Assembly (NCBI GenBank): GCA_049903315.1
Contig: JBNGBT010000008.1
Coordinates: 32,001 to 96,000, forward strand
DNA from: Candidatus Cloacimonadota bacterium
GTDB taxonomy: Bacteria > Cloacimonadota > Cloacimonadia > JGIOTU-2
Direction of reading: 5' to 3'
Length of the DNA stretch: 64,000 nucleotides
Positions within the stretch are counted from its first letter, which is position 1; every line of letters begins with the position of its first letter. Positions 36,001-39,000 of this stretch are shown here, piece by piece. The position numbers were made by a program.

Positions 36001-39000
36001 ATTCAGGAATTTTTATATACGCTATTTGGTTTTGGTTGTATTCGTAGTTGTTTCTGTGAAGTTCTTAGAAGTAAATATTTTTTCTCTTCTTGTCGGCTTA
36101 CTCATTGCTCCAGCTATTGTTCTAATCGATGGTATTCATGCCGGAAAAAATAATCAGGAATCCTAATAAGATATAAGTTGATATGAAAAAAAAGTCCAAG
36201 AAAGCATTGATAATAGTTCTTATAATAATAGTTATTGAGGGGATACTTTCTGTCGGACTTAATCATGAACTTCAGGTTGGAATTGATGATGGCAGATTCG
36301 TTATCAGAAATATTGAGAGTGAAAAATCCATTCAGGATCAGATCAATCATGAATTCCAAAACTATCATATAGTAAAGCTTTTCGGAAAATTTACTATCAA
36401 TTGGAGCGTGTTGCGCGTTATTCTTTTTGTAGATCTTTTTTTGATATTATTTGCAGCGCTTGTCAGACGAAAGATGCATCTTATCCCAGGGAAATTACAA
36501 ATTATTGCAGAGATGATATATTCGTTTTTTTCCAGTCTTGTGATTGAAACAGTCGGTGAGAAGAAGAAATATTTCACGCCCTATATTTTTACAATATTTG
36601 TGTTTATCTGGATATGCAATATAATCGGAATGATCCCCATTCCGGGAAATCTTGAGCCAACCAGGAATTTAAATGTTCCTCTTGGACTAGGACTCATGGC
36701 GCTGGTAATTGTTCATTATTCCGCAATAAAAGAAAAAGGAATGAAGCTCTACCTGAAAGAATATGCCGAACCGATTTCTTTCATGCTCCCCATAAACATT
36801 GTCGGCGAAATTGCAAAAGGGATTTCTCTCTCCTTTCGTCTTTTCGGGAATATTCTTGGAGGAGCTATCATTATTCTCGTAGTTTCGAATCTCACCCGTT
36901 TTATTCTTATCCCGGTTGGTCTTAATCTGTTTTTTGGTTTGTTCATCGGAACGGTGCAGGCATTTGTGTTCACCATGCTTGTGCTGTCATATACCGCAGT
37001 GGCAATAAAATAATATGTTTGATACCTTTAGTTTAGTACACGTTGCAGCATACCTCGGTGCAGGTCTTGCAGTCGGCATTTCGTCGATCGGAGCAGGCAT
37101 TGGAGAGGGCTATATTGCAGGCAATGCGAACATTGCAATGATGAAGCAGCCGAAATCAAACGATATTCTTCTTCGCACTATGCTTATCGCACAGGCAATT
37201 ACAGAAACCGGAGCTATCTTTGCACTCGTGATCGCAATGCTTCTCCTTTTTGGTGGTTCTATTATACCCGAAGCTAACTGGCAGAGGATCGCTTCATTAT
37301 TTGGTGCGGGACTTGTTATGGGAGCGGGTTGTCTCGGAACCGGTCTTGGAATCGGGTATGCTGGCGGACAGGCGTGCAAGGGAATAGGCAGGCAGCCACG
37401 AGAATCAAAAGTTCTTACAGCAAACATGCTTATTGGGCAAGCGCTGTCCGAAACATCGGCTATTTTTGCCTTGGTCATTGCGATGCTTCTTCTTTATTCT
37501 ACACCTGACGGAAACAGCATCGTGAAATCTTTCGCTTTTATTGGTGCAGCATTTGCAATGGGATTCGGAACGTTCGGTCCCGGATTTGGCATCGGTATTG
37601 TGGCGGGAAAAACCGTTGACGGTATCAGCAGGTTTCCAAAGCAGTCTGCAGTACTTGTGAGAACGATGTTCGTAGGCGCCGCTGTGTCGGAGTCAACTTC
37701 AATATATGCATTAGTTATTGCATTTTTATTATTATTTGTAGCATGATTATAATCCTTAGGAGGATACATGGAAAGTGAAATCATTAGAGCGGCAGCATTA
37801 TTGGGTGCTGGCATTTGTATGGGCTTCGGTGCTATCGGACCTGGAATCGGCGAAGGTTTTACCGCCGGAAAGGCATGTGAAGGCATCGCACGTTCACCCG
37901 AAAACGCCGGACTACTCACCAGAACAATGCTTGTCGGTCAAGCAGTATCAGAATCAACCGGTATCTATTCACTGGTCATTTCTCTATTACTTATTTTCGC
38001 AGTGTAAGAACTCCCGTCAAATCGGGAAGGAACCCCGAAATTTCGGGGAGGAGTATCAAGTATGGTTAATATTGATTATACGCTTATTCTGGTGATCGTA
38101 AATTTCATTGTTTTGCTATTCATCCTGAAAAAGCTCTTGTATAAGCCGCTCATGGACTTTATCAACAAAAGAGAATCTCAGATAAGAGATGACCTCCAGG
38201 GCGCAAAAGAGCTTAAAGAAGAATCTACCAAGATTCTTGAGAAGCAGAAAGAATTGCTTCGAAAAGCAAAAGAAGAAGCCAGAAGTATACGTGATGAAGC
38301 AACAAAAAGTGCGAAAATACAGAGCGAGCAAATTCTTCATGATTCCGAAAAACAACGGGATGTGATAATACAGGAAGCTCAGGAAATTATCGATGTAGAA
38401 GTAAACAAAGCAAAAGAAAGCATTCAGTCTCAGATTGGAGATTTTGTCATAGAACTGACCGATAAAATCATCGGCAAGAAACTCACCGAAGATGATGATG
38501 TGAAACTCATTAACGATATGATAAAAGAAGAGAGCAAAAAAAAGGAGTCGTCTGTTGATTAGAAATATCATTGCAAGAAGATACTCATCAGCGCTTCTTG
38601 AGATTATCAAGAGGGATGATCTCGTACATTTTGAGAATGAGATCTCAGCATTGCAGACAATCCTGAAAGATGAGCCAGAAATTGAGGAATTTCTTGTCTC
38701 GCCCATTGTCGAGGATGAGCATAAAACCGAAATTATTGGGCTTCTCGTAAAAGAATTTAATGCATCAGAGGTGCTGCACAATTTCCTGAATGTACTCGTT
38801 GATAAAGAAAGGATATTCTATATTGCAGACATTCTTAAGGAATTGATCAGAAGAATACACAAGGAAATCGGCATCTTTGATTTTGAGCTTAAGACAGCAC
38901 ATGAACTCGATGAAGAAACAAGTGAAAATATAAAAAAATTCATCTCAAAATATGTTGATGGAAAAATAATATTTAAACATACGATTGATCGGCATATTAG

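Follow-up and report, generated by a model that had tools for sequence, protein, structure and literature searches.

The window analysed here, a stretch of 64,000 nt from an uncultured Cloacimonadota anaerobe, carries an F-type ATP synthase operon in which a c gene encoding three fused hairpins stands next to an ordinary single-hairpin c gene. This raises the question of what a six-helix proteolipid does in the rotor of an F1Fo enzyme. We propose that the triple-hairpin c is probably a low-copy spacer in the mixed rotor ring of a Na+-coupled F1Fo ATP synthase.

An F-type operon with two c genes

According to Pfam matches, the operon has the order atpZ-atpI-a-c3-c1-b-delta-alpha-gamma-beta-epsilon and lies downstream of parA, parB, an M23 peptidase gene and a bactofilin gene. 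The features are listed by position within the window; all operon genes are on the + strand.

35566..35802, + strand: atpZ-like gene (ATPase_gene1), 78 aa (PF09527)
35783..36166, + strand: atpI, 127 aa (PF03899)
36183..37013, + strand: subunit a, 276 aa (PF00119)
37015..37746, + strand: triple-hairpin c, 243 aa, six helices (ORF, three PF00137 matches, AlphaFold2)
37054..37245, + strand: triple c hairpin 1, with E31 and E64; T65, G66, F69 (Pfam, alignment)
37300..37491, + strand: triple c hairpin 2, with I113 and E146; T147, S148, F151 (Pfam, alignment)
37540..37731, + strand: triple c hairpin 3, with I193 and E226; S227, T228, Y231 (Pfam, alignment)
37758..37763, + strand: strong Shine-Dalgarno sequence AGGAGG of the single c gene (sequence)
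37768..38007, + strand: single-hairpin c, 79 aa, with E29, V60, E62, S63, T64, Y67 (ORF, PF00137, alignment)
38062..38562, + strand: subunit b (PF00430)
38555..39085, + strand: subunit delta (PF00213)
39112..40815, + strand: subunit alpha, with a charged insertion of 49 residues (Pfam, alignment)
40817..41683, + strand: subunit gamma (PF00231)
41664..43223, + strand: subunit beta, canonical atpD; the real start is perhaps further in (TIGR01039)
43223..43642, + strand: subunit epsilon (PF02823, PF00401)

The first-pass annotation had described an otherwise canonical F-type operon containing a 243-aa c of three ATP-synt_C hairpins followed by a 79-aa c, and both points agree with our results. 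The subunits stand in the usual order and beta is of the atpD type (TIGR01039, 841 bits; cut-off 463), while PF00137 matched the 243-aa ORF three times and the 79-aa ORF once, in each case above cut-off. N-ATPases lack delta and have an alternate beta (passages of PMC4154653). Since delta is present here and the beta score for TIGR03305 (613 bits) is below its cut-off of 752, the operon is not of this kind. A V/A-type origin was likewise rejected, given the F-type operon, the K models, all of which stayed below cut-off, and the lack of a PF01496 match in the genome. Against the K model NF004913 (220 positions), the triple c scored 70 bits, the cut-off being 211, compared to 168 bits with the best F-type c model.

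Subunit a has a conserved Arg motif that lines up with E. coli a, and about 40 additional N-terminal residues; AtpI is named an assembly factor in passages of PMC7911925. The triple c gene starts 1 base past the stop of a and lacks a Shine-Dalgarno sequence. Between c and b we found two small stem-loops, within chance (z -1.6), and promoter and terminator scans of the locus gave no signal above shuffle level. Eight RNA runs contained 6-12% of the words. Contigs from 4 of these 8 runs, 85-96% alike, cover parts of a, triple c, single c and b; they are the relatives' own, and no ranking of genes, proof of transcription or conclusion on habitat is drawn from them.

AlphaFold2 folded the triple c (85-row alignment) into three helical hairpins with a mean pLDDT of 93.2 and a pTM of 0.87. 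Its hairpins are 42-51% identical to the single c and only 40-45% identical to each other, indicating that the triplication is old. Comparison among five close relatives revealed purifying selection (dN 0.01-0.04 vs dS 0.7-1.3). An assembly or read-through artefact was dismissed on the basis of this hairpin divergence, the purifying selection and the presence of a triple c in 105 of 106 genomes compared.

The F1Fo operon is the sole rotary ATPase of this genome. In the 96% complete assembly, we found neither a second c gene nor another alpha/beta pair, and no V-type subunit I; a second rotary ATPase was ruled out, the other two PF00006 matches being Rho. Genes of a Na+ economy comprise two NqrB/RnfD matches, Mrp-type subunits, a membrane pyrophosphatase and an NqrA-like match near cut-off; no match to an OadB-type decarboxylase was found in the genome. 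The closest relative with a genus name is Ca. Celaenobacter antarcticus (76%), and 29 of the 30 named relatives' loci from GTDB genomes belong to Cloacimonadota. Na+ bioenergetics has been inferred for Celaenobacter, in passages of PMC8542988 that do not mention the c subunit.

Ion sites and their conservation

Residues were numbered after F. nucleatum c (32/63/65/66/67/70), as derived from an alignment with 3zk1. In this type of ring, one hairpin supplies Glu32 and Glu65 to the Na+ site and the adjacent hairpin supplies Val63 and Ser66, its Thr67 and Tyr70 assisting; position 32 is Glu or Gln (passages of PMC3692424). In fused c subunits, the inner site consists of the Glu pair of the later hairpin and Ser/Thr/Tyr of the earlier one (passages of the preprint 10.64898/2026.10.01.756066). 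For the triple c, this donor/acceptor direction was taken from these papers and not from the coordinates of its model.

The single c has every residue of the two-carboxylate Na+ motif of the F. nucleatum type and is, as judged from this motif, a Na+-type rotor subunit. A glutamate in helix 2 of each triple c hairpin, as annotated earlier, was found at E64, E146 and E226, and the second carboxylate assigned to hairpin 1 and to the single c was found at E31 and E29. The residues 33 places before the helix-2 Glu are E31, I113 and I193 in hairpins 1, 2 and 3. Hairpin 1 presents a whole Na+ donor half outward (E31/E64) and a degenerate acceptor, T-G-F, towards hairpin 2. Hairpin 2 has only Glu on its donor side (I113/E146), with acceptor residues T-S-F. 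Hairpin 3 also has only Glu on its donor side (I193/E226), and its whole acceptor, S-T-Y, faces outward. At both inner sites Glu is present, Ile replaces Glu/Gln32 and Phe replaces Tyr70.

The initial claim that three ion sites are kept could thus not be upheld: the inner two lack the helix-1 ligand and the Tyr and are incomplete by the site rule, which rules out three Na+ sites in the triple c. Because of these missing residues, the triple c is predicted by the motif rule to add just one full Na+ site, and would comprise this site and two Ile/Glu sites.

We then turned to the phylum. An F-type c match was found in 109 of 112 genomes outside family f6 (among 200 other phylum genomes), bearing out the earlier view that the feature is common to much of the phylum. 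Family f6 gave only weak single matches, in 10 of 88 genomes. V-type subunit I occurred in 82/88 f6 and 2/2 f9 genomes. Outside these two families, it was confined to one f3 genome and a weak match in one f10 genome. This distribution fits the split described in passages of PMC12590816, in which one Cloacimonadota clade is F-type and the other V/A-type.

Of the 110 phylum genomes that gave an F-type match, 106 were compared; G145, G168, G191 and G195 were omitted, their matches being partial or at contig ends. A triple c was present in 105 of these 106 genomes, the remaining one (G081) having a two-hairpin form instead, and 102 of the 106 had a single c next to the multi-hairpin gene. All 102 single c subunits had the full Na+ motif, with Glu (97) or Gln (5) at position 32.

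The glutamates of the triple c were far less constant. Of the 105 genomes, 57 retained Glu65 in hairpin 1, 9 in hairpin 2 and 87 in hairpin 3; hairpin 2 has Gln in the other 96. The residue-65 patterns were EQE (40), QQE (33), EEE (9), EQQ (8), QQQ (5), GQQ (5) and GQE (5); by genus, EQE was found in 27 of 47 and EEE in 3 of 47. At least one hairpin lacked Glu in 96 of the 105 triples, and 10 lacked it throughout. Retention of all three glutamates is therefore the exception (9/105 genomes, 3/47 genera), and the theme of the family is not that sites are kept but that they are lost or changed.

None of the 210 inner sites in the 105 triples qualified as a full Na+ site. Tyr70 was lost from hairpin 1 in 105/105 and from hairpin 2 in 99/105, and position 32 of hairpin 3 was Ile or Val in 105/105. 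As to the outward half-sites, the hairpin-3 acceptor was full in 103 of 105, and the hairpin-1 donor was full in 51, reduced to Glu in 6 and absent in 48. In all 48 genomes without the hairpin-1 Glu, hairpin 3 had Ser-Thr-Tyr; these 48 are kin (15 genera, 3 families) and do not represent independent events.

In the wider family, the earlier count of 568 homologues was reproduced; of the best 120, three hairpins were present in 85, four in 26 and five in 9. Among 17 longer homologues, 5 had six hairpins and one Glu. Named four- and five-hairpin forms came from Desulfobacterales and other Deltaproteobacteria. Among 147 new proteins (from the best 150 representatives), 44 had three and 71 had four hairpin matches, some partial, including one Desulfobacterales triple and one diverged four-hairpin cluster in TM6/Vermiphilus. 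One contig that bears the label Anaerolineales (L059) also has a triple together with a single c. A four-hairpin alignment retrieved 474 metagenome loci; in the best 80, the order was Z-I-a-c4-c1-b-b where the contig permitted, and no F1 genes were found; a single c came next in 75 of these 80, the remaining 5 ending at contig ends. The first hairpin of these four-hairpin subunits had Glu/Glu in 80/80 and the last had Ser-Thr-Tyr in 79/80, one being cut. The best reading is that the triple c is part of a series of 2 to 6 hairpins that extends to Desulfobacterota and TM6.

A probable mixed ring and its ion count

That the rotor is a mixed ring of six-helix and two-helix subunits, as had been predicted, is likely in view of the 48 genomes that keep Ser-Thr-Tyr on hairpin 3 and lack the hairpin-1 Glu. 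A ring of triples alone would leave this half-site without a partner, so that it most simply faces a single c. Separate rings or enzymes, i.e. a single-c homo-ring and a triple homo-ring (of four copies, for example), or a triple c outside the rotor, are highly improbable. The hairpin-1 donor and the hairpin-3 acceptor could indeed pair in a homo-ring in the 51 of 105 genomes with both halves intact, and co-assembly of the two c subunits is a prediction from sequence. However, in 48 of 105 genomes a homo-ring of triples would be devoid of Na+ sites, and in 10 of any carboxylate, with the outward acceptor still kept. Subunits a and b and the F1 set each occur once in the genome, and A. woodii c1 sits in a mixed ring (passages of 10.64898/2026.10.01.756066 and PMC9171764).

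The single c had the stronger Shine-Dalgarno sequence in 90 of 100 genomes (medians, -9.5 vs -6.1 kcal/mol for the triple c), and the values in the window were -10.2 and -1.5 kcal/mol. In family f10, it was stronger in only 4 of 11. These energies are a crude proxy, calculated for the best start per gene with a generic anti-Shine-Dalgarno sequence, the genome's own 16S 3' end not having been found.

In the mixed ring, the Glu pair of hairpin 1 would face the preceding single c and Ser/Thr/Tyr of hairpin 3 the following one. The triple c would thereby fill three hairpin places and complete one Na+ site's worth, its two inner interfaces binding no Na+, so that fewer Na+ would pass per turn than the ring size implies. 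One triple among single c subunits would act as a spacer like Acetobacterium c1, one step longer. As the triple c appears to add only one complete Na+ site, it is probably such a spacer, changing the number of ions per ATP. The other Na+ F-type rings known in 2013 have 11 hairpins. On the assumption of this size and of one triple per ring, 9 Na+ would be used per 3 ATP, or 3.0 Na+/ATP, as compared to 3.67 for a plain c11 ring and 3.33 for A. woodii. Under the same ring assumption, forms without the hairpin-1 Glu would reach 2.67. A lower ratio would yield more ATP per ion and need a higher potential (111 mV at 32 kJ/mol, 173 mV at 50 kJ/mol); in the pumping direction, it would build a steeper gradient. 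The longest relatives would put 5-6 ion-blind hairpins into an 11-ring, which would be hard to drive in synthesis; members of the family may therefore vary in ring size or direction.

Two observations run counter to a spacer. Hairpin 3 has Glu in 87/105 genomes while other silent sites go to Gln. Furthermore, all three Glu are kept in the window, and the inner sites may not be inert.

The same mixed ring could instead use its inner Ile/Glu sites as working proton sites, a reading that we regard as unlikely. Such a ring would carry, on this rather doubtful account, about 9 Na+ per turn plus 1 H+ in most relatives or 2 H+ in the window's lineage, which would be back to 11 charges per turn if both inner sites carried H+. 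It is conceivable, at rather long odds, that ATP would then be made from both gradients, with Gln/Glu switches setting the charge per ATP between ~2.7 and 3.7. Equally tentative is the corollary that dedicated Na+ and H+ sites share one ring. The fused subunit would then resemble an exchangeable gear that evolution can adjust, hairpin number (2-6) and Gln/Glu switches stepping the ion count per ATP, and the window's lineage would have converted both of its inner positions to Ile/Glu proton sites.

E. coli c is an H+ carrier (passages of PMC9171764), and its Ile28 lies exactly 33 places before Asp61, like Ile before Glu in hairpins 2 and 3. Consistent with proton sites, hairpin 3 combines its invariable Ile/Val with a Glu in most genomes. 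Among the triples, Glu in hairpin 2 was found in 7 of the 14 from f1 and in 2 of the 6 from f11. At these two hairpin-2 positions, the f1 triples change in concert (7 Ile/Glu, 7 Asn/Gln, none mixed), each Ile/Asn and Glu/Gln switch being one base. In the tree of hairpins 1 and 3, a single clade for the 7 Ile/Glu rows was rejected (p-AU 0.001), and the 9 rows with hairpin-2 Glu need 4 changes, 2 of which are forced by strong branches; the tree of all 105 triples was a quick tree. Identity between G030 and its sister G041 was 99%, 82% and 94% in hairpins 1, 2 and 3. All c-ring sites are, in addition, intrinsically H+-selective, and Methanosarcina acetivorans reportedly couples to both ions (passages of PMC3692424). 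However, 18 of 105 genomes, from several lineages, have Gln instead of the hairpin-3 Glu, which is therefore dispensable, and a permanently protonated Glu acts like Gln, as shown for position 32 (passages of PMC3692424). Hairpin 2 dS was raised as well (0.9 vs 0.5), and the two-hairpin form of G081 also carries an Ile-type helix. Thus, recombination or repeated loss, and not gain, may explain the scatter of Ile/Glu.

A chiefly structural or assembly role, in which the triple c would serve as ring nucleator, size setter or gamma/epsilon docking place and fewer ions would be a by-product, is very unlikely. It would account for the loops, which are conserved and differ by position: Gln-Pro in hairpin 1 (105/105), Arg-x-Pro in hairpin 2 (105/105) and, in most cases, a middle residue that is aromatic in hairpin 3. 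Retention of the 10 triples without any Glu also points this way, as does the clustering of first, middle and last hairpins by position across phyla, weakly supported in a hairpin tree of 78 columns with 59 of 109 forks open, from which no order of events is claimed. Yet the range of 2 to 6 hairpins and the frequent Glu/Gln switching would be left unexplained, and a structural role is compatible with the spacer, which we continue to prefer.

The triple c among known rotors

We found no description of an F-type c of at least three hairpins in titles, abstracts and passages of the literature, one 2015 survey of hybrid rotors being outside this scope. The survey, by Brandt and Mueller, reportedly comprises around twelve anaerobes in which a single c is combined with a double one, and may include longer forms. 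Passages of PMC9171764, PMC7911925, PMC3692424, PMC3543383, PMC9324843 and PMC4776705 contain no such subunit, nor do passages of the main texts of PMC4154653, PMC8542988, PMC12590816, 10.1101/2024.02.27.582367 and 10.1101/2023.04.11.536006. F-type c subunits appear in these sources as single hairpins, with the double hairpin of A. woodii and C. aceticum as the exception. The passages of PMC4154653 go no further than a duplicated Alkaliphilus c that is extended by ~100 aa, and 10.1101/2024.02.27.582367 filtered out sequences of >250 aa. In passages of 10.64898/2026.10.01.756066, F-type rings are said to consist "predominantly" of two-helix subunits, and Cloacimonadota are not mentioned there. 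The suggestion that the F-type triple is undescribed holds within this literature, and the triple c, which is real and conserved, is apparently undescribed.

Most families of the phylum have the F-type triple as a rule, in their only rotary ATPase. The number of ion sites per c ring fixes the ion/ATP ratio, which is central to energy-limited anaerobes, and models of Cloacimonadota energy metabolism that assume a plain ring would need revision. The family also offers a natural series, in which a common scaffold bears from 3 down to 0 glutamates and relatives have 2 to 6 hairpins. This series bears on the length of ion-blind arc that a rotary motor is able to pass and on whether one ring can hold two kinds of ion at fixed sites.

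The archaeal A-type c of three hairpins is that of Methanocaldococcus jannaschii. It shares three fused hairpins with fewer sites, but archaeal K subunits belong to an A/V-type enzyme, whereas the triple c accompanies a single c within an F-type operon. Archaeal A-type c/K subunits have 1, 2, 3 or 13 hairpins (passages of PMC9171764). The single c shares the equivalents of Glu32, Val63, Glu65, Ser66, Thr67 and Tyr70 with the F. nucleatum c11 ring (3ZK1; passages of PMC3692424), which differs in being a homo-oligomer of single hairpins without a fused subunit. According to the same passages, one ring may also use both ions in M. acetivorans; every site is promiscuous there, while distinct Na+- and H+-type sites would alternate here.

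The closest known systems are the A. woodii hybrid rotor (4BEM; c1 with c2/c3), with a ratio of single to fused c of 9:1 (passages of PMC9171764), and C. aceticum c1/c2 (passages of PMC7911925). In both, as here, an F-type operon with atpI has a multi-hairpin c gene followed by a single c. A. woodii c1 (4bem_J) was the best match of the triple c both in structure (Foldseek, rmsd 1.6 A over 165 columns) and in sequence (phmmer). Like the triple c, it has a Na+ motif and keeps its outward half-sites, and its inner site is degenerate. In our alignment, its first hairpin has Gln/Glu with Phe at position 70 and its last has Gln with Thr-Thr-Tyr. The two systems agree in a multi-hairpin and a single c within one F-type operon and, by the motif rule, probably in one added Na+ site. 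They differ in that c1 has two hairpins (four helices) and not three, and in that c1 keeps Gln32 and loses its inner Glu, whereas the inner hairpins here keep Glu with Ile in place of Gln32. With three hairpins and no carboxylate lost, the triple c is therefore a variant of the A. woodii hybrid rotor outside strict membership. Unlike that rotor, it is accompanied by a two-carboxylate single c, occurs phylum-wide and lies within a series of 2 to 6 hairpins.

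Additional segments in other subunits and Rho paralogues

Besides the c genes, three subunits of the ATP synthase operon in the window were found to carry additional segments (window coordinates):

36183-37013, + strand, subunit a, N-terminal extension of about 40 residues including a hydrophobic segment, by comparison with E. coli a
39112-40815, + strand, alpha subunit, charged insertion of 49 residues in the nucleotide-binding domain, recognized by motif spacing
41664-43223, + strand, beta subunit, C-terminal Lys/Glu-rich tail of about 45 residues, past the end of the atpD model

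With the insertion, two conserved motifs of alpha lie 57 residues apart, compared to 8 without it. This stretch was located in 25 related loci; 6 of them, all from close kin, have the insertion. Elsewhere in the genome (G000), two Rho paralogues were observed:

C11:354494-355117, Rho paralogue 1
C55:193278-193895, Rho paralogue 2

Further forms and copies of the triple c

Three loci of the triple c family were considered individually:

L216:655-1140, - strand, two-hairpin c form of 161 aa in G081, a relative from the same phylum
L058:617-1179, triple c copy with a frameshift, from a single MAG; shares 94% identity with the triple c of the window
L059:5970-8577, genes for a, triple c, single c, b and delta; the contig is rich in GC and carries the label Anaerolineales

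Judging by its sequence, the two-hairpin form looks as if the middle part had been deleted. Its hairpin 2 resembles helix 1 of the triple's hairpin 2 fused to helix 2 of hairpin 3. The frameshift in L058 may be a sequencing error, and the Anaerolineales label of the L059 contig may be a binning error. At L059, the b subunit carries a long N-terminal extension and two sulfatase-like ORFs precede alpha; that genome has two more c genes besides the triple and the single.

Chains of four or more hairpins

In the best 80 of 474 metagenome loci matched by a four-hairpin c alignment (L061-L140), the operon encodes Fo alone and includes two genes for b; F1 genes were not found nearby. A diverged four-hairpin clade comprises P0229 and about 50 similar proteins of 307-329 aa, one cluster of which bears the name TM6/Vermiphilus pyriformis; many members have Asp in the last hairpin.

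Five- and six-hairpin c proteins (P0126-P0128 and P0130, one named Bipolaricaulota) have Glu in all hairpins and a hydrophobic residue at position 32 (F. nucleatum numbering). Eight F-type c hairpins, all with Glu, are present in the single polypeptides P0129 and P0131 (612-613 aa); from sequence, such a chain could possibly constitute most or all of a c ring. Finally, P0132-P0136 (1108-1147 aa, two named Promethearchaeota) contain 14-15 hairpins per chain, exceeding the 13 of the Methanopyrus subunit cited in a preprint (10.64898/2026.10.01.756066).
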